DNA of 38,363 nucleotides from a virus (lineage: Duplodnaviria; Heunggongvirae; Uroviricota; Caudoviricetes): the IMG/VR virus record IMGVR_UViG_2541047946_000018, positions 1 to 38,363 of that record. One strand, given 5' to 3'. Every line of letters begins with the position of its first letter. Position 1 is the stretch's first letter. Under the pieces are notes generated by a model that saw only the letters and a list, made by a program, of their open reading frames with translations, had not been told where the DNA came from and did not search any database. The position numbers and the translations under genes were made by a program. Of this stretch, positions 1 through 32,734 are shown piece after piece.

Positions 1-183
1 CGTACAGCCAATCTTTGGAGCAATGGAACAAATTGTCGCCCATTGTGAGTCATATTCGCCCTGACTTTCCAGAACCATACGGACTGCCCGTTGACGGACT
101 TCAGGGGAAAAACGAGTATTTTTAGTCATCCTGTTTACCTCTTTCTCAGGAAGTTTAGTCTCCAGGATTCCCGGGGCGGTTCA
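1..183 (-). mobile_element. IS629-like (IS3 family) insertion sequence, partial copy running off the left window edge; terminal inverted repeat ends at 183
   Basis: Bases 1..183 are the exact reverse complement of 11808..11990, the left end of the full IS copy, including the terminal TGAACCGCCCCGGG repeat and the orfA start. Confidence 0.85.
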
Positions 184-1076
184 GCTTGCCACGCGGCCCA
201 GTCTATTGACTGAGATAATGAGTCAACAAAAGGATATAAGGATTTTGCTTCAGAAATTGAAGAAAACCTCTCAGATAATGGATGATATTTCCCATCCCCA
301 ATTGCTCCGAATTGTTTTACATTTAAGAAAAGAGCATTGTTTTCATGCTGAGTTATAGTTACAGCCCCGGCAAATGGCTGCCTTACACCAATTAATGCAT
401 CACCTTTTCCTTCTCCTGCGCTAGATAATTGCAGAAGAACATCTGCGGCACTGCCAGAAGGCACAGGTACACCTATAGGTTTACCATTGACGATACCAAT
501 GACAGTTTCTTCCAGTAAATGAACTGGAGGAAGTGGTTCAATAAAATTATCTGGAACCCGTAATGTCCTGTTAATATTCACATTAACAATATTATCAACA
601 TAATTCTTTGTAGCTGCATCTTGAGGCTTGGAAGGATCGCGCAAATTGCGGATGTAATTATTCAAGGCATCGTAATAGTTTGCCACAAATGATGGTTTGC
701 GCAGCGCCAGGCTAAACCAACTGCGGACTTGCTGTATCAGCATCGTCAGCTTATCTAACGCGTCTTCATGCACCTCAGCGAAAAACTTTCCCTGATTTCG
801 CAGATCAGTTTCCTGCGTAACCGGTAGCTCTCGTGATATAGAAATCTGATAACCGTTAGCTAACGCCTTCGACAGAATTACATTACCGCCATTATATCCA
901 CCAGCCCCAGTGACAGTGTAATCAGTATCAAGAGCCAGCACAGCGATATTTTCGTCAAGGTCAACCACCTGTACTGCCAGATCAGATTCCTTGAAAACCC
1001 TAAAGGTATACGGAAATGATGTCGTAACGCCGTTACCTGTGTATTCGTTGTGGTCAACTTCGGTTGAGACCGTCAT
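184..1076 (-). pseudogene. T7 gp17-like tail fiber/tailspike, N-terminal about 297 codons only; C-terminus replaced by IS sequence
   Basis: ATG at 1076 with GGAG RBS. N-terminus (YTGNGVTTSFPYTF...TDYTVTG) resembles the T7 gp17 adapter domain; a pectate-lyase-type beta-helix start motif (FGAIGDGK) follows. The frame runs into the IS at 183 and stops at 135 inside it. Confidence 0.7.
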
Positions 1077-1196: not shown

Positions 1197-1234
1197 TTGC
1201 AAAACGTGCTGGATAGCAAACAAATTATTTGATA

Positions 1235-1250
1235 CTGTATAAATATACAG
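1235..1250. promoter_or_regulatory. LexA (SOS) box CTGTATAAATATACAG overlapping the -10 region of the downstream plus-strand gene
   Basis: CTGT-N8-ACAG with AT-rich spacer, one mismatch from the E. coli consensus CTGTATATATATACAG; 21 bp upstream of ATG 1272. Confidence 0.7.
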
Positions 1251-1271
1251 TTATTGCATGGAGAAGATAAG

Positions 1272-1529
1272 ATGCAGCAGTATCACTATCCACTGGAAGA
1301 CGGATTTACCGAAAGGATTCACACGCCGGGAGGCGTCAGGTCACTGGTGGAGGGATCGCACTTGATGAAATTACTCCGGGATCTCGATAAGGATGGATTT
1401 AATGTCGATGGCCCACTTGCCGAACTGACTGCACTGATTAACTACGTCACCAGCTCACAGATGTCTATGCGGGATCTGCAAACACATCTCGACTATTGTG
1501 CCGAACAATTACGAAAACAAACCCGGTAA
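1272..1529 (+). CDS. Small antirepressor-like protein, homologous to the C-terminal domain of the Bro-N protein at 2913..3605; likely SOS-induced
   Basis: ATG 1272 preceded by GGAGAAG RBS (the ORF track starts at TTG 1254). About 40 percent identity by eye to the Bro-N C-terminus (LMxLL..L..DG..V.G..AELT....Y.......LRD[IL]QTH..Y). Confidence 0.6.
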   Translation: MQQYHYPLEDGFTERIHTPGGVRSLVEGSHLMKLLRDLDKDGFNVDGPLAELTALINYVTSSQMSMRDLQTHLDYCAEQLRKQTR

Positions 1530-1553
1530 ATTTAAAGGCCGCAAGAGCGGCCA

Positions 1554-2060
1554 TTAACAGTCGTAAAATTCCGGGTCCCACAAACTTGCATCGCGCGGCA
1601 TGGATTCTAAATTTTTCAGCCGCAAAATTCTGTCACACTCGACAAGAAGTTTTTGTTTTTGTTCGTCAATTTCTACTTTTTTGTGTGCTGGCTCATCCCA
1701 GTAATCCAGAAGAAACGCATGTCGCTCAGACGTTACAAGATAAATCACATACACATCACTGGTTGGTATTTTTTTATGCTTGTTGGTGGTCTTGTCTTTC
1801 TTCCCGGATGCCCAGTTTTTCCAGCATTGTTCCGTACCGCTCTCACCAAACTTGTCAGTATAGTTTCCGATGTTTACGTGAACGTGGCGTATGTGATATT
1901 CCAGCATCTCTTTCGGTGGATCCCGAAACAGAGTGTCCTTTCCGAAATCCTTATGATGACCGTAGCGCCAGTGATCTATGAACGCGTTTTTGATAGGTAT
2001 TAGCTCAGGGTCCTTCCCAAAAATTCCAGGGTGAACCAACCCCTGGAATTTATTCAGCAT
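1554..2060 (-). CDS. YafO-like putative toxin (mRNA interferase family), paralog A
   Basis: ATG 2060 overlaps the upstream gene's stop by 11 nt. Shares HWR[YH]GHH, GKDTLF, HVHVNIG, TEQCW and YWDxPAH motifs with the paralog at 4049..4561; resembles E. coli YafO from memory. Confidence 0.55.
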   Translation of the reverse strand: MLNKFQGLVHPGIFGKDPELIPIKNAFIDHWRYGHHKDFGKDTLFRDPPKEMLEYHIRHVHVNIGNYTDKFGESGTEQCWKNWASGKKDKTTNKHKKIPTSDVYVIYLVTSERHAFLLDYWDEPAHKKVEIDEQKQKLLVECDRILRLKNLESMPRDASLWDPEFYDC

Positions 2061-2469
2061 CGTCGTAGAGCTCCTGAGCCATATCTTCGGCAGTGCGTGC
2101 AAACATCCTGCGCGAGATTGCATGAGATTTCTCGACGGACATCTTTGGGACCTCATGCATAACATTTTTGGGAGTTGTGTAATAGCCTATTACAATTTTC
2201 ACACCTGACTTATGATTAATATCAGCATAATATACTTCTTGTTCAGACGTTTCACGACGAACATAATCTGCCAGTTTTCCACATTTAAATTCCCCTCCCT
2301 GATGTTTTAAAATCTCCTCAACTGCACTATTTTCAGTGAAATACCGAATAAGAAATTTCTGTCCAGTCTCTTCAGCATGAGGTATAACAGTATTATTGGA
2401 AGCCCGAACAATGGCCTTACTCAATATTTCATGGTCTTTATTTTTTTCTGATTTCCTCAAATGCTGCAT
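2050..2469 (-). CDS. Small basic partner protein of YafO-like paralog A (putative antitoxin), acidic C-terminus
   Basis: ATG 2469 with GAAGAGAG RBS (track ORF starts at TTG 2505). N-terminal region similar to the partner at 3736..4062; not YafN-like. Confidence 0.45.
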   Translation of the reverse strand: MQHLRKSEKNKDHEILSKAIVRASNNTVIPHAEETGQKFLIRYFTENSAVEEILKHQGGEFKCGKLADYVRRETSEQEVYYADINHKSGVKIVIGYYTTPKNVMHEVPKMSVEKSHAISRRMFARTAEDMAQELYDDAE

Positions 2470-2504
2470 TACTGTAGCTCTCTTCGTGTTCACGGGCCCC
2501 CCCA

Positions 2505-2521
2505 ACTACCTCTAGGGTAAA
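2505..2521. promoter_or_regulatory. Operator-like site ACTACCTCTAGGGTAAA (one mismatch), just downstream of a candidate sigma70 promoter for the minus-strand module
   Basis: On the minus strand TTGCCA-18 bp-TAGAAT precedes this site, 36 bp upstream of ATG 2469. Confidence 0.45.
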
Positions 2522-2629
2522 CATTCTATCGAAAGTATACGCATACTGGCAAAAAAATAGGCAGGTATTTTCTGAAATGGGATCAATCAAACCACATAGG
2601 GTTGAAATAACGTGAGTTATGCATTTATT

Positions 2630-2646
2630 ATTACCTTTGCGGTAAA
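2630..2646. promoter_or_regulatory. Operator site ATTACCTTTGCGGTAAA with AACCACATA element at 2590..2598
   Basis: Near-consensus palindrome in the divergent intergenic region between the minus-strand module and the Bro-N gene. Confidence 0.55.
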
Positions 2647-2723
2647 TTTACATCGCACTCCTCTTGTGCCATAGTAATCGGGCACTGGCAAAATCCAGTG
2701 CCGGGATTGGTCTCCCGGATTAC

Positions 2724-2870
2724 TACAGAGGCACATATGCCGCATAAGCGGTTTTTTTATGTGTAAAGCGCACCTATTCTATGGTGGGCTGTGTGGGGGC
2801 ACCGAAAGGTGCGCCGGGTTCCTTTGTAGCCGGTAAGACCAACTCTGCACAGTTCACCACCATCTGATTG
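2724..2870 (+). repeat. Conserved non-coding element, copy A (Bro-N leader), homologous to 22221..22360
   Basis: Shared blocks GGCACAT..GC..CG.ATA.GCGG, GGGGCACC, GTAGCCGG and TTCACCA in the same order and similar spacing in both copies; several hairpins (GGCACTGG/CCAGTGCC, CCGGGA/TCCCGG, CCGC-ataa-GCGG followed by T7). Confidence 0.4.
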
Positions 2871-2912
2871 GTCTCAGCGGTGGTGATTAACCTAACTACA
2901 AAGGTGATCGCC

Positions 2913-3605
2913 ATGAATACCAAACCTTCCATCTTTTCCTTTGAGTCATCCTGCCAGATCCGTATGTTCATGATTGACGGAGAACCTTGGTTTGTCACCA
3001 AAGATGTGTGCAATGCTTTGAATATTGATGTTACACAAGCGAGAAAACTTGATAAAAAAGGCTGGAACAAAAAGGGGCTGTATTCAATACAGACCCCTGG
3101 TGGAATACAAGAACTATCCATCGTTTCAGAATCAGGTCTCTACATCCTTATTCTGCGTTGCAAAGAGGCAATGACTGAGGGAACGAGAGCATTCAGATTT
3201 CTTGAATGGGTTACAGGTGAGGTTCTTCCTCAGATCCGCCGCACCGGAAGTTACATTAAAAACTCGCTCCCGCAGGAAGAACGCATAAAGATGGTTGCCG
3301 ACCAGGTAGCCAACGCCACAGCATCAGCAGTGATGCAGGCAATGAAGATAGAGAACAAAACCTACAGCGCCCCGCTGAAGCCCGGCTACCGTAGCCTGAT
3401 TCATTCTCCGTCTGGTGTTCTCGGCCTGACGGAGAACTCACTGCTGATGAATCTGCTGAACCAGTTACAGGAAGACGGGCACGACGTATCGGGCGCGGCG
3501 GCGGAGCTGACCACCATGTTCTGCTACATCGTTGGTGTGAGCAAATGCCTGCGTGATATCCAGACGCACGCGGAGTACATCAACGACAAGGCAGGGTTCT
3601 TCTGA
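2913..3605 (+). CDS. Bro-N domain antirepressor-like protein
   Basis: ATG 2913 with AGGTGA RBS. N-terminal Bro-N signature (IRMFMIDGEPWFVTKDVCNALNI); C-terminal domain homologous to the 1272..1529 product. Confidence 0.7.
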   Translation: MNTKPSIFSFESSCQIRMFMIDGEPWFVTKDVCNALNIDVTQARKLDKKGWNKKGLYSIQTPGGIQELSIVSESGLYILILRCKEAMTEGTRAFRFLEWVTGEVLPQIRRTGSYIKNSLPQEERIKMVADQVANATASAVMQAMKIENKTYSAPLKPGYRSLIHSPSGVLGLTENSLLMNLLNQLQEDGHDVSGAAAELTTMFCYIVGVSKCLRDIQTHAEYINDKAGFF

Positions 3606-3614
3606 CAGAACGGC

Positions 3615-3640
3615 GGCACAGGGATGTGCCTTTAAATAAT
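3615..3640 (+). terminator. Possible intrinsic terminator after the Bro-N gene
   Basis: GGCACA-ggga-TGTGCC hairpin followed by TTTAAATAATT. Confidence 0.3.
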
Positions 3641-3677
3641 TCTGTACAGATTGCAGACTGTGGGTGAATAGCGTACT

Positions 3678-3694
3678 ATTACCTTAAAGGTAAA
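3678..3694. promoter_or_regulatory. Operator site ATTACCTTAAAGGTAAA overlapping a candidate promoter (TTGCAG-17 bp-TACTAT)
   Basis: Palindrome 42 bp upstream of ATG 3736. Confidence 0.55.
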
Positions 3695-3735
3695 CCTGTT
3701 TTTATTTTATACCTGTAACTTACCGGAGATTAAAG

Positions 3736-4062
3736 ATGACAAAACTTGGATTCGTGATGAGAGGTCCGGTAAGAAGCGGAACTCATGCAAAGCGTAGCAA
3801 GAGTCGTATTTTTACTGGTAAGGTTGTAGCACGTAAATCAGCTATTGGCTCGTTCAATAGTGAAAATGCGGCATTGCGCCATATTTTTATCAGCACAAAG
3901 CCAAGAGCATCCGCTGATGTGCATACAATGTCTATTCCTATCACAAAGAATATAAAGCGGATAAAAAAGCTCTCATCTGCAGAATCAAAAGAGATATCTT
4001 TCCGCCAGCTTAACTCATTAGAAACGCATATGAAGGAAGAGGAATTCGATGTTTTTGAGTGA
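3736..4062 (+). CDS. Small basic partner protein of YafO-like paralog B (putative antitoxin), acidic C-terminus
   Basis: ATG 3736 with GGAG RBS; stop overlaps the downstream start by 14 nt. Confidence 0.5.
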   Translation: MTKLGFVMRGPVRSGTHAKRSKSRIFTGKVVARKSAIGSFNSENAALRHIFISTKPRASADVHTMSIPITKNIKRIKKLSSAESKEISFRQLNSLETHMKEEEFDVFE

Positions 4063-4561
4063 GTATAGCGGGAAGGTTATACCTACTGGTGAGTTTAAAA
4101 CTGATGACTTTCTGATTTCGCTAAAAGATGCTTTTAAACAACACTGGCGTCATGGTCATCATCCTGATCTGGGAAAAGATACTCTTTTTGAAAGACCAGA
4201 GGAAGTATTAGGCTTCCATCTCAGAAAGGTTCATGTCAATATTGGTGAATATGCATCATATTCATACTCATGTACTGAACAGTGTTGGGATGAGTGGTCA
4301 TATGGATTGATTGATGAACAAGGAAATTACAGGCCAAAACCAACCAGTAACGCATATCTCATATATGCAGTCAATGAAATAAGAGATGCAGCCTTACTAG
4401 CTTATTGGGACCCGCCCGCACACACCAAAGCTAACGCAAAAGTTTGGATGGATTCCGTATTGAATTTCACAAAATTATTTCATGAACGAACGAATACAGC
4501 TCCACTTAGTAGAAATGTTTATCCGTGGGATTATTCGTACAAATCCAAAAAGCCTGCATAG
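4049..4561 (+). CDS. YafO-like putative toxin, paralog B
   Basis: ATG 4049 with GAAGGAAGAGGAA RBS; same motif set as paralog A. Confidence 0.55.
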   Translation: MFLSEYSGKVIPTGEFKTDDFLISLKDAFKQHWRHGHHPDLGKDTLFERPEEVLGFHLRKVHVNIGEYASYSYSCTEQCWDEWSYGLIDEQGNYRPKPTSNAYLIYAVNEIRDAALLAYWDPPAHTKANAKVWMDSVLNFTKLFHERTNTAPLSRNVYPWDYSYKSKKPA

Positions 4562-4642
4562 TAGTTTTTTATGGACGAAACAAAAGTCAGTGCTACACTC
4601 ATTGACGCCACATTGAGGTGGTTTATAGATGGAAATTTCACA

Positions 4643-4804
4643 ATGAAAAAAGCATTTGCTGCACTGTTCGTTTTGTTGTCTCTGGTAGCTTCAACTCAGG
4701 CCTTTGCCGGTCGTTGTCAGCACGACAGCGACACTGCTGCTGACGGCTCCCGCTGCGGTGGGCGTTCTGCGGATTCCCGCCCGGGTGGCGGTGGCATTCG
4801 TTAA
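4643..4804 (+). CDS. Possible small secreted peptide (53 aa), third gene of the paralog-B operon
   Basis: Canonical Sec signal MKKAFAALFVLLSLVASTQAFA; no terminator between 4561 and this ORF; terminator immediately after. Confidence 0.35.
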   Translation: MKKAFAALFVLLSLVASTQAFAGRCQHDSDTAADGSRCGGRSADSRPGGGGIR

Positions 4805-4810
4805 AAACAA

Positions 4811-4832
4811 GGCCGCGAAAGCGGCCTGTTTG
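4811..4832. terminator. Bidirectional intrinsic terminator between convergent genes
   Basis: GGCCGC-gaaa-GCGGCC hairpin flanked by AAAAACAA upstream and TGTTTG downstream. Confidence 0.65.
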
Positions 4833-4833
4833 A

Positions 4834-5685
4834 TCACTGTGCAGTTTTCGCTGATCGATTTTCAGCTCTAAATTCAAGAACCGTTTCAATATTTCTTTCC
4901 TTCAGCATATCAATAACATTTTTATTCATTTGACTATCACTGGTTAATAACTGGTAAACGTTGCTTCTCTCTTTATCAGAGTTTTCTTTAACAGCTGCTT
5001 TGCATGCCAAATGCTTATTGAAATTTTCTACATCGCTAGTACAGGAATTTACGGCTGCTGATGAAATATCAGACGCTGAAGAAACACCATCATCCAAACG
5101 TTTTATAGCATTTTCTATACATGAGTTAAGGGAATAAACGACAACTGAGCGATACCCTTCAGACGCACACCATTCTAAATTTCTTGAAGGATCGAGTGGT
5201 TTTACTTCGCTGGATTGAATTAACTTGTCAAAAACTGACTTATATTCAATCTGTTTTTTATCTATAGCCCATACTTCAGTAGCTGATTTATAATTCCCCG
5301 TATGCCTATTAACATCAAACCCATGTTTTATAAGCAAATCTGCCCATGAAAGATTTATTGATTCATTGTTATGAGGCCATTTTCCTGTCAGAACCGCCCC
5401 CATAGACCCCATATATCCGCCATATGATGGTATAGCACCATGGCTCAGTAACTTCTCAGCAACCACAGGGCAATTAATTACATAAGAGGCGTAAAGCCCA
5501 TTCCATAAAGCCCCTCTATAGTAATCGCCACGATTAGGTTCTTTTAAGTCGATAGCCTTTGATAATTGTTCACACGTTTTGCATGCATCAAAGTTATCCT
5601 TATTGCATTGCAATGAACTGGCAGCTGTAGGATTTACAGAGACTATTGAAAGCACTATGCCAAAAAACAAATTTATTTTTTTCAT
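4834..5685 (-). CDS. AT-rich moron: secreted protein with possible ankyrin-like repeats
   Basis: Signal peptide MKKINLFFGIVLSIVSVNPTAASS; ANK-like segments (LLSHGA, LLIKHGFDVN); low GC versus neighbours; starts 1 nt after the gp16-like stop. Confidence 0.6.
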   Translation of the reverse strand: MKKINLFFGIVLSIVSVNPTAASSLQCNKDNFDACKTCEQLSKAIDLKEPNRGDYYRGALWNGLYASYVINCPVVAEKLLSHGAIPSYGGYMGSMGAVLTGKWPHNNESINLSWADLLIKHGFDVNRHTGNYKSATEVWAIDKKQIEYKSVFDKLIQSSEVKPLDPSRNLEWCASEGYRSVVVYSLNSCIENAIKRLDDGVSSASDISSAAVNSCTSDVENFNKHLACKAAVKENSDKERSNVYQLLTSDSQMNKNVIDMLKERNIETVLEFRAENRSAKTAQ

Positions 5686-11790: not shown

Positions 11791-11861
11791 CTGGCGTCCG
11801 GATGTAGTGAACCGCCCCGGGAATCCTGGAGACTAAACTTCCTGAGAAAGAGGTAAACAGG

Positions 11862-12188
11862 ATGACTAAAAATACTCGTTTTTCCCCTGAAGTCCGTCAA
11901 CGGGCAGTCCGTATGGTTCTGGAAAGTCAGGGCGAATATGACTCACAATGGGCGACAATTTGTTCCATTGCTCCAAAGATTGGCTGTACGCCGGAGACTC
12001 TGCGTGTCTGGGTTCGCCAGCATGAGCGGGATACCGGGGGCGGTGATGGAGGGCTCACCACCGCTGAACGTCAGCGTCTGAAAGAGCTGGAGCGTGAAAA
12101 TCGTGAACTGCGCCGCAGTAACGATATCCTTCGCCAGGCTTCCGCTTATTTTGCGAAGGCGGAGTTCGACCGCCTCTGGAAAAAATGA
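11862..12188 (+). CDS. IS629 OrfA (IS3-family transposase N-terminal HTH part)
   Basis: [31 protein letters not shown]...; recognised IS629/IS3411-type OrfA; A6 slippery run at its 3' end. Confidence 0.85.
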
Positions 12189-13075
12189 TGCCACTGCTGG
12201 ATAAGCTGCGTGAGCAGTACGGGGTCGGACCGCTATGCAGCGAACTGCATATTGCCCCGTCAACGTATTACCACTGTCAGCAACAGCGACATCATCCGGA
12301 TAAACGCAGTGCCCGTGCGCAGCGCGATGACTGGCTGAAGAAAGAGATACAGCGCGTATACGATGAAAATCACAAGGTATACGGTGTGCGTAAAGTCTGG
12401 CGTCAGTTGTTACGGGAAGGTATCAGAGTGGCCAGATGCACTGTGGCACGTCTCATGGCGGTTATGGGACTTGCCGGTGTTCTCCGGGGTAAAAAGGTCC
12501 GTACGACCATCAGCCGGAAAGCCGTTGCCGCAGGCGACCGCGTAAACCGTCAGTTCGTGGCAGAACGACCTGACCAGCTGTGGGTGGCTGATTTTACTTA
12601 CGTCAGCACATGGCAGGGCTTCGTCTATGTGGCGTTCATCATTGATGTGTTTGCCGGATACATTGTGGGGTGGCGGGTCTCATCGTCCATGGAGACGACA
12701 TTCGTGCTGGATGCACTGGAGCAGGCGTTATGGGCCCGTCGACCGTCCGGCACGGTCCATCACAGTGATAAAGGTTCTCAGTATGTATCGCTGGCCTACA
12801 CACAGCGGCTTAAGGAAGCCGGATTACTGGCATCAACAGGAAGTACAGGCGACTCGTATGACAACGCGATGGCGGAGAGCATCAATGGTCTTTACAAAGC
12901 GGAGGTAATACACCGTAAGAGCTGGAAAAACCGTGCAGAAGTGGAACTGGCCACACTCACGTGGGTGGACTGGTATAACAATCGACGATTGCTGGAAAGG
13001 CTGGGCCATACTCCTCCGGCAGAAGCAGAAAAAGCTTATTATGCTTCCATCGGAAACGATGATCTGGCAGCCTGA
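12185..13075 (+). CDS. IS629 OrfB (transposase catalytic DDE domain)
   Basis: Overlaps orfA in the -1 frame; rve-type integrase core by family knowledge. Confidence 0.85.
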
Positions 13076-13135
13076 GTTCACAGATAAAATACTCTCCAGG
13101 AAACCCGGGGCGGTTCATAGTAGGAACAACAGGCA

Positions 13136-22462: not shown

Positions 22463-22539
22463 GTGGCATTAGCTCAGTTGGACAGAGCAACCGCCTTCTA
22501 AGCGGTTGGTCGCAGGTTCGAATCCTGCATGCCACGCCA
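22463..22539 (+). tRNA. tRNA-Arg (anticodon UCU), argU-like
   Basis: Cloverleaf: acceptor GTGGCAT/ATGCCAC, D-arm TAGCTCAGTTGGACAGAGC, anticodon stem ACCGC/GCGGT with loop CTTCTAA, T-arm GCAGGTTCGAATCCTGC, discriminator G plus CCA; close to E. coli argU. Confidence 0.9.
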
Positions 22540-32149: not shown

Positions 32150-32734
32150 ATGAAAAGTATCCAGGACGTCCGCAGGCAAAATCTCAACGACTTGATCGAC
32201 CGTGAATTCAATGGTGTTCAGACGCGGATGGCTGAAAAACTTGGAACTCAGGCAAATCTGGTAAACCGCTGGGCTCTTGGCAAGAAGGTTATCGGCGACC
32301 AGGTTGCACGAAAAATTGAAGCTGCCGCCAATAAACCCCGTAACTGGCTTGATATCGATCGCTCGCTTTCTCAGGAAGGTTTTCAGCCTGTCGGCCCAAG
32401 CGACATTGGCCAGCTGGCGGCTCACAACCTGGAACGCTGGATGAGCGAAAGCCGCGACCTTTCAACACAGGGAAAACTTCACCGCGCATCCGGCGTAGCC
32501 CAGGTGACAATCAGCCGCCTGTTAAACAATGAGGTCAGCGTTTCCATTTCCACCCTGGAGAATGTTGCATCCGCATTCGGGCGTCACGGCTATGAATTAC
32601 TGATTCACCCGCACGACCCTGCGACCATCAACTATGATCGCTCGCGCTACGCATTGTTACCCGAAACCGAGAAAGCAAAGATCGAAAGTTACATTGAATT
32701 TGTCATCAACCAGAACGAAAAAAACAAACAATAA
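32150..32734 (+). CDS. CI-like repressor with two HTH domains and no recognisable S24 autopeptidase domain
   Basis: Two XRE-type HTH segments; no GDSM/Ser-Lys dyad region; position between the operator clusters. Confidence 0.6.
   Translation: MKSIQDVRRQNLNDLIDREFNGVQTRMAEKLGTQANLVNRWALGKKVIGDQVARKIEAAANKPRNWLDIDRSLSQEGFQPVGPSDIGQLAAHNLERWMSESRDLSTQGKLHRASGVAQVTISRLLNNEVSVSISTLENVASAFGRHGYELLIHPHDPATINYDRSRYALLPETEKAKIESYIEFVINQNEKNKQ

Follow-up and report, generated by a model that had tools for sequence, protein, structure and literature searches.

An apparently repressor-wired YafO/RelE-type toxin with a modular putative antitoxin as cargo of an Escherichia coli prophage

The 38,363-nt viral stretch analysed here (IMG/VR record IMGVR_UViG_2541047946_000018; at its full length, the window) carries on its minus strand, around positions 1554 to 2521, a two-gene module that we call module A; a second such pair, module B, lies on the plus strand at 3736 to 4561. 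Judged from its sequence, module A is apparently a YafO/RelE-type toxin with a modular antitoxin, borne as prophage cargo and wired to the phage repressor. Our favoured account, in which we place moderate confidence, is that it is an intact YafO cassette of the type II toxin–antitoxin (TA) kind and a piece of exchangeable cargo, that its toxin would be neutralised by the C-terminal tail of the partner protein, that its expression would be gated by the repressor, and that it is separate from module B.

We envisage this arrangement as follows. Read along the minus strand, module A would run from its promoter (2552..2523) through an operator (2521..2505) and the partner gene (2493/2469..2050) to the toxin gene (2060..1554). 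By analogy with E. coli YafO and the RelE superfamily, toxin A would bind the ribosome, cut mRNA and stop translation. The last 36 residues of the partner (C36), which comprise a short PKMS segment resembling a strand, then a helix and an acidic tail, probably wrap around the cognate toxin and neutralise it, as conservation and co-variation suggest; the N-terminal two-thirds of the partner show no recognisable DNA-binding fold and, between modules that are otherwise near-identical, are swapped or hypervariable. The start site of the module A sigma-70 promoter would be covered by a 17-bp operator that is dispersed over the phage, ATTACC-N5-GGTAAT, and the same operator would act at the PL/PR-like early promoters, at an immI-like antirepressor operon and at module B. 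Since the operator is shared with the early promoters and the antirepressor, module A is probably silent in the lysogen, and it would be switched on together with the antirepressor when the repressor, seemingly of a non-cleavable type, is inactivated or absent, that is, upon induction or in a fresh infection. Module B would be a paralogue that was acquired separately and has a cognate tail of its own; the two modules are probably insulated from each other.

The toxins and their partners

Toxin A (1554..2060, minus strand, 168 aa), an intact YafO-family protein with a RelE/HigB-like fold, and its paralogue toxin B (4049..4561, plus strand, 170 aa) are 44% identical over 163 aa (E 9e-41). The similarity that an earlier note on this DNA had proposed is thus significant in pairwise alignment, and the motifs it had listed, HWR[YH]GHH, GKDTLF, VHVNIG, TEQCW and YWDxPAH, all occur in both proteins. 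We also sought an inactivating lesion, which that note had named as a possible objection; none is visible, because every family-invariant column of a 40-sequence alignment (29 residues) is kept in both toxins. Directly after the toxin A stop lies a GC-rich hairpin with a T-rich tail (GGCCGCTCTTGCGGCC, 1537..1552), a terminator-like element shared with the convergent open reading frame (ORF) 1272..1529.

Both toxins bear the PGAP name 'type II toxin-antitoxin system YafO family toxin'. Toxin A has no Pfam match at E<=1, the 25-bit gathering cut-off of YafO_toxin (PF13957) not being reached, and toxin B matches that model at E 7e-4 with 20.1 bits, under the same cut-off. The YafO_toxin model does match 39 of the 40 family members at E<=0.01 (best 8.8e-9), and some close homologues carry a precomputed PF13957 assignment. 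When 1.8 billion representative proteins were searched with the toxin-family profile, only 72 were found at E<=1e-3; among them are short proteins whose matches to K-12 YafO range from E 2e-11 to 5e-8. Aligned by hhalign with K-12 YafO alone, the toxin family (set A2) gave 51% (E 1.5e-4), and with a group of nine classic YafO sequences 99.4% (E 7.8e-22, 134 columns), bringing the motifs FG[KR]D, H-x-H, TSD..Y and AH into register; members of the nine-sequence group match K-12 YafO at E 2e-11 to 3e-4. Four large proteins (P0076, P0091, P0102 and P0112; 723-3067 aa), each with 6-10 stretches matching the toxin profile, were rejected as carriers of YafO domains: the two that were checked, P0076 and P0102, are RCC1-repeat proteins, and we took such hits for chance repeat matches.

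The toxin has a RelE-like alpha/beta fold, with no significant Foldseek match in PDB or BFVD; a PDB sequence search with toxin A returned nothing, and the NCBIfam search nothing meaningful. PADLOC-DB 2.0 gave no match at E<=1 for seven proteins (both toxins, both partners and neighbours), a profile search of genome contigs found a single locus, in Serratia aquatilis, and a literature search turned up no work on this phage subclade of YafO or on the partner. On our favoured account the toxin is a distant YafO-family protein with a RelE/HigB fold. E. coli YafO associates with the ribosome and, as an endoribonuclease, cleaves mRNA 11-13 nt past the start codon (PMC7781912), and by this analogy the most likely activity of toxin A is that of the YafO/RelE superfamily: ribosome binding, mRNA cleavage and a stop to translation.

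Upstream of each toxin gene stands a small overlapping partner gene, so that the two-gene architecture described in the earlier note is indeed repeated. Partner A, a putative antitoxin (2050..2493, minus strand), has 147 aa if it starts at GTG 2493, the choice of PGAP and a codon that is ATG in allelic variants, or 139 aa if it starts at ATG 2469, the choice of the earlier note, the PHROG profile and the GenBank record of phage EC.W1-9. Partner B (3736..4062, plus strand; phrog_5933) has 108 aa, with a very basic N-terminal part and an acidic tail. The 11-nt overlap between partner and toxin genes claimed for both modules is right for module A; in module B it is 14 nt. Similarly, the description of partner A as basic with an acidic tail is borne out for the tail (pI, the isoelectric point, 4.0-4.3 in both partners) and fails for the protein as a whole (pI 7.9 or 6.7, depending on the start); the N-terminal part of partner A alone has a pI of 9.2, and partner B overall 10.6. 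We collected 46 IMG/VR loci and one Serratia locus with toxin homologues, and examined 56 toxin copies in 50 loci, the window and the records N10, FDAARGOS_497 and TL-2011b among them; a partner ORF lies upstream of every copy, mostly with an overlap of 11-26 nt.

In this collection the partners are linked to one another by their tails. In a pairwise alignment partners A and B are not detectably similar (BLASTP E 39), so the paralogy proposed for the modules does not show at this level; the partners of the collected loci nevertheless form one cluster through their last 35-40 residues, which follow the pattern h-P-K/R-h-x-x-M/L-S-x-E-x-x-x-x-I/L-S-R, then a helix, then [FY]-D-x-x-E. In partner A this conserved C36 segment (MHEVPKMSVEKSHAISRRMFARTAEDMAQELYDDAE) occupies 2053..2160 (minus strand). 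With a profile built from tails other than the A type we searched 699 six-frame segments of the window; the partner A ORF scored E 2.3e-5 and the next best segment 0.69. In the reverse search, a profile of A-type tails did not significantly retrieve partner B. Across 38 unique modules, the identity of C36 follows that of the toxin (Spearman 0.66) whereas that of the rest of the partner does not (0.10), for which reason we read C36 as the toxin-cognate, putatively neutralising element. By our count, only about 10 of the 36 positions are the same in the A and B tails, so that cross-neutralisation between the modules seems unlikely; together with the co-variation of C36 and toxin, this makes plausible the different partner specificities that the earlier note had suggested. 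The N-terminal parts of partners A and B are unrelated.

Neither partner matches anything in Pfam, NCBIfam or PADLOC, and a search of PDB sequences with partner A and the partner profile found nothing; partner A belongs to phrog_9503, annotated as of unknown function. The partner family is unrelated to YafN (probability 0.15%), and Pfam and NCBIfam detect no helix-turn-helix (HTH), ribbon-helix-helix, AbrB or Phd domain in either partner. An AlphaFold 2 (AF2) model of partner A has a predicted local distance difference test score (pLDDT) of 50, its only moderately confident element being a helix at residues 120-146. Of the features by which type II TA systems are recognised, we find a bicistronic overlapping operon, a partner that is always present and a partner segment that co-varies with the toxin; a DNA-binding, autoregulating antitoxin is not found by Pfam or NCBIfam, the AF2 model being mostly of low confidence. 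We hypothesize that the partners make up a putative antitoxin family, previously unnamed and undescribed.

The N-terminal two-thirds of partner A form a hypervariable cassette (2161..2496, minus strand; the DNA of low identity extends roughly over 2496-2135), delimited by comparison with three alleles at loci L011-L013. Within the cassette these alleles share 40-60% DNA identity with the window, and 92-100% in the promoter and from C36 through the toxin. A database search with partner A yielded 26 further clusters at 90% identity, of which 16 cover at least 92% of the protein at only 37-47% identity and the other 10 match just a part of it, eight of them essentially the tail alone; the tail is near-invariant in all 25 of the 26 cluster homologues that were aligned. 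The window's own N-terminal allele is common to only 39 of 58 complete E. coli genomes with module A. At least two unrelated classes of N-terminal domain are joined to an A-type tail, and because one of these also occurs with another class of tail and toxin, we consider that the N-terminal domain is shuffled as a unit. The AF2 model has pLDDT <50 across the cassette. A diversity-generating retroelement was rejected as the source of variation, there being no template repeat within the window. Relaxed constraint alone is also insufficient, because the flanks are near-identical even at silent sites; the pattern needs recombination among old alleles, possibly kept by diversifying selection, and a hypervariable N-terminal domain of this kind hints at an arms race.

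These features invite an alternative that we regard as possible but unlikely, namely that the modules serve abortive infection against other phages or competitors, the partner's N-terminal domain acting as a sensor or decoy and setting the YafO-type RNase free once that domain is bound or degraded by a protein of a rival phage. TA-based defence systems with variable sensing domains are known. That precedent, together with the TA partner swapping and defence described in PMC10440598, speaks for this alternative, as do the sharp boundaries and many alleles of a cassette inside an otherwise 92-100% identical module, the shuffling of N-terminal domains and the position of both modules among the cargo-slot genes of a prophage. 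On the other hand, there is no PADLOC match, module B is monomorphic (at least 99% identity in 69 genomes), and the operator described below predicts silence in the lysogen, just when a defence would be needed.

A phage-wide operator and prophage immunity

The sigma-70-type promoter of module A to which the earlier note had drawn attention, TTGCCA-18-TAGAAT, is present at 2552..2523 (minus strand), matches 10 of 12 consensus positions and is conserved in related loci; promoter-like matches inside genes are not in excess (9 found, 7.5 expected in shuffled sequence). Covering the expected transcription start is a repressor-type operator (2505..2521), the core of which, TACCCTAGAGGTA at 2507..2519, comes three nucleotides after the -10 element. 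That note was right to see an operator-like site here, in that TACCCTAGAGGTA is a real palindrome, and wrong to tie it to the module, since it is one instance of a phage-wide ATTACC-N5-GGTAAT site. Module B has a promoter of weak consensus match, TTGCAG-17-TACTAT, that abuts an operator ATTACCTTAAAGGTAAA (core 3680-3692; promoter and operator together 3651..3694, plus strand).

The window contains 13 copies of the core motif TACC-N5-GGTA where 0.18 would be expected; they lie at 1182, 2507, 2632, 3680, 22127, 22744, 25664, 29688, 29750, 31696, 32081, 32793 and 32855, and their extended consensus is ATTACCTnnnAGGTAAT. We mapped these positions on the annotated N10 prophage and on the ORFs of the window. 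Four sites lie in the cargo region, upstream of ORF 1272..1529 (1182), module A (2507), the antirepressor operon (2632) and module B (3680). One separates the repressor gene (32150..32734) from a divergently oriented cro-like gene, and two are just downstream of the repressor gene, where site 32855 abuts a PL-like consensus promoter (TTGACA-17-AATTAT); the others follow the cro-like gene, stand between the genes for replication and the nin-like genes, or lie near the start of the terminase gene and upstream of structural genes. The same sites stand at the same places in phiV10, TL-2011b and EC.W1-9, and in most promoters of related modules the motif follows the -10 element, also where the sequence around it is different. 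The GenBank record of epsilon15 (NC_004775) labels exactly this motif 'protein_bind: repressor, lysogeny'.

The window's repressor, a protein of 194 aa with HTH_3 domains and no detected peptidase domain, is 100% identical to phiV10 gp40. An identical repressor in phage ZX5 shuts off lytic transcription when overexpressed (PMC9782041). Taken together, the want of a DNA-binding domain in the partners and the phage-wide operator lead to the simplest reading, in which the repressor would keep both cassettes off in the lysogen and they would come on once it is missing or inactivated; the cassettes would thus probably answer to prophage immunity and not to autoregulation.

Between the two modules lies the gene for a Bro-N antirepressor (2913..3605, plus strand; Pfam Bro-N E 1.8e-13; PHROG anti-repressor Ant families). 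Its leader (2602..2864, plus strand) comprises a promoter, TTGAAA-18-TATTAT, an operator at 2632-2644, an isrK-like RNA at 2682-2758 (74.7 bits) and a C4 antisense RNA at 2777-2864 (78.6 bits), with a sub-threshold c4-a1b1 target match at 2669-2721. By these sequence matches, the leader is that of a P1 immI-like antirepressor operon under antisense-RNA control in an epsilon15-like prophage. Overexpression of the Bro-N antirepressor of phage ZX5 promotes lytic growth (PMC9782041).

Also of interest in this region is ORF 1272..1529 (plus strand), which encodes an 85-aa homologue of epsilon15 gp19 that aligns with the C-terminal domain of the Bro-N antirepressor at 43% identity (E 1e-16). A near-consensus LexA box, TACTGTATAAATATACAGTT (1233-1252), precedes the ORF by about 20 nt, and the 16-nt core of the box is conserved exactly in 21 of 57 related loci. 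The product is a candidate SOS-inducible small antirepressor, directed at a repressor with no detected peptidase domain.

From these elements a bolder proposal can be assembled, which we put forward only tentatively: that both cassettes are repressor-gated weapons and not addiction modules. DNA damage would lift LexA from ORF 1272..1529, the product would inactivate the non-cleavable repressor, and all 13 operators would open, those of both YafO-type modules included. The RNase thereby released might serve host shut-off or commitment to lysis, or else might abort a rival phage whose antirepressor had tripped the switch; the shuffled N-terminal domain of the antitoxin, as the interface of an arms race, might act as trigger sensor, decoy or protease degron. 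Were this true, it would amount to a YafO-type system with an exchangeable sensor module under direct prophage-immunity control.

Autoregulation from a palindrome at the operon's own promoter is usual among type II TA systems. A conventional module of this sort, constitutive in the lysogen, with its palindrome bound by the partner or by the partner–toxin complex and with addiction or stabilisation as its function, has that general rule in its favour, as well as the related modules L018 and L020-L022, which keep the promoter and lack the TACC-N5-GGTA site. We nonetheless think it improbable for the modules described here: the same 17-bp palindrome is repeated over the window, at PL/PR-like promoters among other places, and also precedes non-homologous cargo; it stays constant though the N-terminal parts of the partners are non-homologous or hypervariable; and no DNA-binding domain can be detected in the partner.

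Two cargo slots in an epsilon15-like prophage

The window represents an epsilon15/phiV10-type (Uetakevirus-like) prophage of E. coli, integrated beside guaA; its positions 1200-4900 are 99.9% identical to the chromosome of E. coli N10, and pieces of it match phages EC.W1-9, TL-2011b, phiV10 and others. Both modules lie between the tailspike gene and the gene for a large internal virion protein (DUF919). The same stretch holds only a small gene and the Bro-N gene in phiV10, one YafO-type pair in TL-2011b and a DUF2335 gene in other prophages, so that the number of modules does vary among related prophages, as the earlier note had thought worth checking (none in phiV10, one in TL-2011b). Slot 1 is empty (about 70 bp) in phiV10 and several IMG/VR prophages and ranges from 67 bp to about 3000 bp among related prophages, and in slot 2 of TL-2011b a different cassette stands behind the same promoter and operator as module B. 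Modules A and B are both also present in the isolated phage EC.W1-9. The interval between tailspike and internal virion protein thus behaves, in epsilon15-like prophages, as two cargo slots with fixed operator-controlled promoters.

Some further observations on the slots and their surroundings may be recorded. The cargo of slot 2 is variable among related prophages (L002 4027-4828; L003 3821-4520; L055 31060-32244), and in some E. coli strains it consists of a hypothetical gene and a DUF2335 gene. The YafO-type pair of TL-2011b encodes a 59-aa partner and a 181-aa toxin, and near it is an extra Arc-like repressor with a P22-type Ant. A tRNA gene (22463-22536, plus strand), tRNA-Arg in the matching N10 record, lies between the terminase and structural modules. 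DNA of an IS3-family insertion sequence (IS) occupies positions 1-183 and 11805-13117 of the window and includes an ALIL pseudoknot (12143-12259). A structural gene is interrupted by this DNA, and a truncated tailspike ORF (135..1076) adjoins it; in strain N10 the IS is at a different position. The prophage in the window is probably defective.

Module A occurs in 58 and module B in 69 of 5426 complete E. coli genomes, and both occur together in at least 11; each is found alone far more often than with the other. Toxin B, like module B as a whole, is at least 99% identical in all 69 carriers, and toxin A is 94-100% identical across its 58. The GC content of the modules is 39-44%, against 48.5% for the window. 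The earlier note was correct that no recent duplication is at hand: beyond the 44% protein identity, the toxin genes share only a 66-bp stretch with 73% DNA identity. Its picture of two copies diversifying around the antirepressor gene is not upheld, in so far as it implies duplication in place; the slots vary in cargo, A and B occur mostly alone, and toxin B is nearer to its Serratia homologue (69% identity) than to toxin A (44%). Given toxin genes almost without DNA similarity, a low GC content and the independent assortment of the modules, A and B look like two independently acquired cargo cassettes in two variable slots.

It follows from the same evidence that an inverted duplication of one ancestral module around the antirepressor gene, with later divergence, is very improbable: the shared architecture, the spacing of ~1.7 kb and the inverted orientation would suit it, against which stand the near-absence of DNA similarity between the toxin genes, the many carriers of a single module, the empty slot 1 of several phages, the closer Serratia homologue of toxin B and the fact that slot promoters are fixed while cargo varies. 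That the modules are decaying or inert remnants, passively carried and encoding no active toxin, we can scarcely credit: the prophage does look damaged (IS3 sequence, truncated tailspike ORF), yet both toxin ORFs are full length with all 29 family-invariant residues, their sequences are kept across the 69 and 58 carrier genomes at the identities given above, and the same modules occur in EC.W1-9, an isolated phage.

Role, known relatives and meaning

Several points weigh against our favoured account of an exchangeable, tail-neutralised and repressor-gated cassette. The classic YafO set (A4) was drawn from the toxin family's own profile hits, which makes the hhalign test partly circular. We infer the neutralising role of C36, and the partner model is poor (pLDDT 50). 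The repressor-site annotation in epsilon15 is a prediction with no footprint behind it, and control by the repressor is not universal, as the related modules L018 and L020-L022 have no operator. Furthermore, silence in the lysogen would be an odd feature in a cassette meant for addiction or for defence of the lysogen. Part of the evidence fits each of three roles, namely selfish addiction, defence of the lysogen and a function in the lytic phase (host shut-off or the exclusion of rivals); the first two, in their usual form, sit poorly with the repression that is predicted for the lysogen.

The closest relative among described systems is E. coli YafN-YafO (PF13957), with which the modules share a homologous toxin core and a partner gene upstream of the toxin. 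The toxins described here are longer by about 40 residues (~170 aa compared with 132 for YafO), with an insertion of ~20 residues (TEQCW..W..G) and a longer C-terminus, and the partner, in contrast to YafN, is unrelated to the Phd-YefM type and has no detectable DNA-binding domain. The modules here are prophage cargo, whereas E. coli yafNO is chromosomal and belongs to the LexA-controlled dinB operon (PMC7781912); here the promoter bears an operator of the prophage repressor, downstream of a LexA-boxed small gene, so that both systems are wired to an external, damage-responsive repressor. Within the RelE/HigB superfamily, HigB2 of Vibrio cholerae (5mje/5jaa) has a sequence identity to our toxins of only 6-17%, with no significant Foldseek match, and compared with HigB2 and the RelE superfamily the toxin here has extra helices. 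Another distinguishing feature relative to HigB2 is that the neutralising segment would be at the C-terminus of the partner, joined to a variable, apparently unstructured N-terminal part.

In phage P1, immunity rests on dispersed C1 operators and the immI operon (c4 RNA, icd, ant). The prophage described here resembles P1 in placing one repressor operator over many promoters, accessory genes and a C4-antisense-RNA/antirepressor operon included. It differs in that the operator is a symmetric 17-bp palindrome, the repressor is a 194-aa protein of the HTH_3 type, and the operator-controlled cargo is a pair of YafO-type TA cassettes. The partner's construction also recalls the combinatorial TA partner network set out in PMC10440598, where one part of the partner is toxin-cognate and the other is exchanged between systems; the conserved element here is a 36-aa tail, the variable part has no known domain and PADLOC gives no match.

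The toxin type already has a name in RefSeq, and it can fairly be said that the gene type is ordinary and the wiring unusual. The partner, in which a 36-residue toxin-cognate tail is coupled to a swapped N-terminal part, is an undescribed modular protein, and it offers a compact natural system in which to study the insulation of TA pairs and, possibly, the sensing of triggers. Promoters that bear operators, coupled with a partner that lacks a DNA-binding domain, suggest that TA expression is tied to the lysis–lysogeny switch, and the LexA-boxed antirepressor-like gene suggests a further coupling of the TA cassettes to the SOS response; E. coli's own yafNO is likewise within an SOS operon. For the family of prophages, which are common in E. 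coli, the view of two slots with fixed promoters should be useful in predicting accessory genes.

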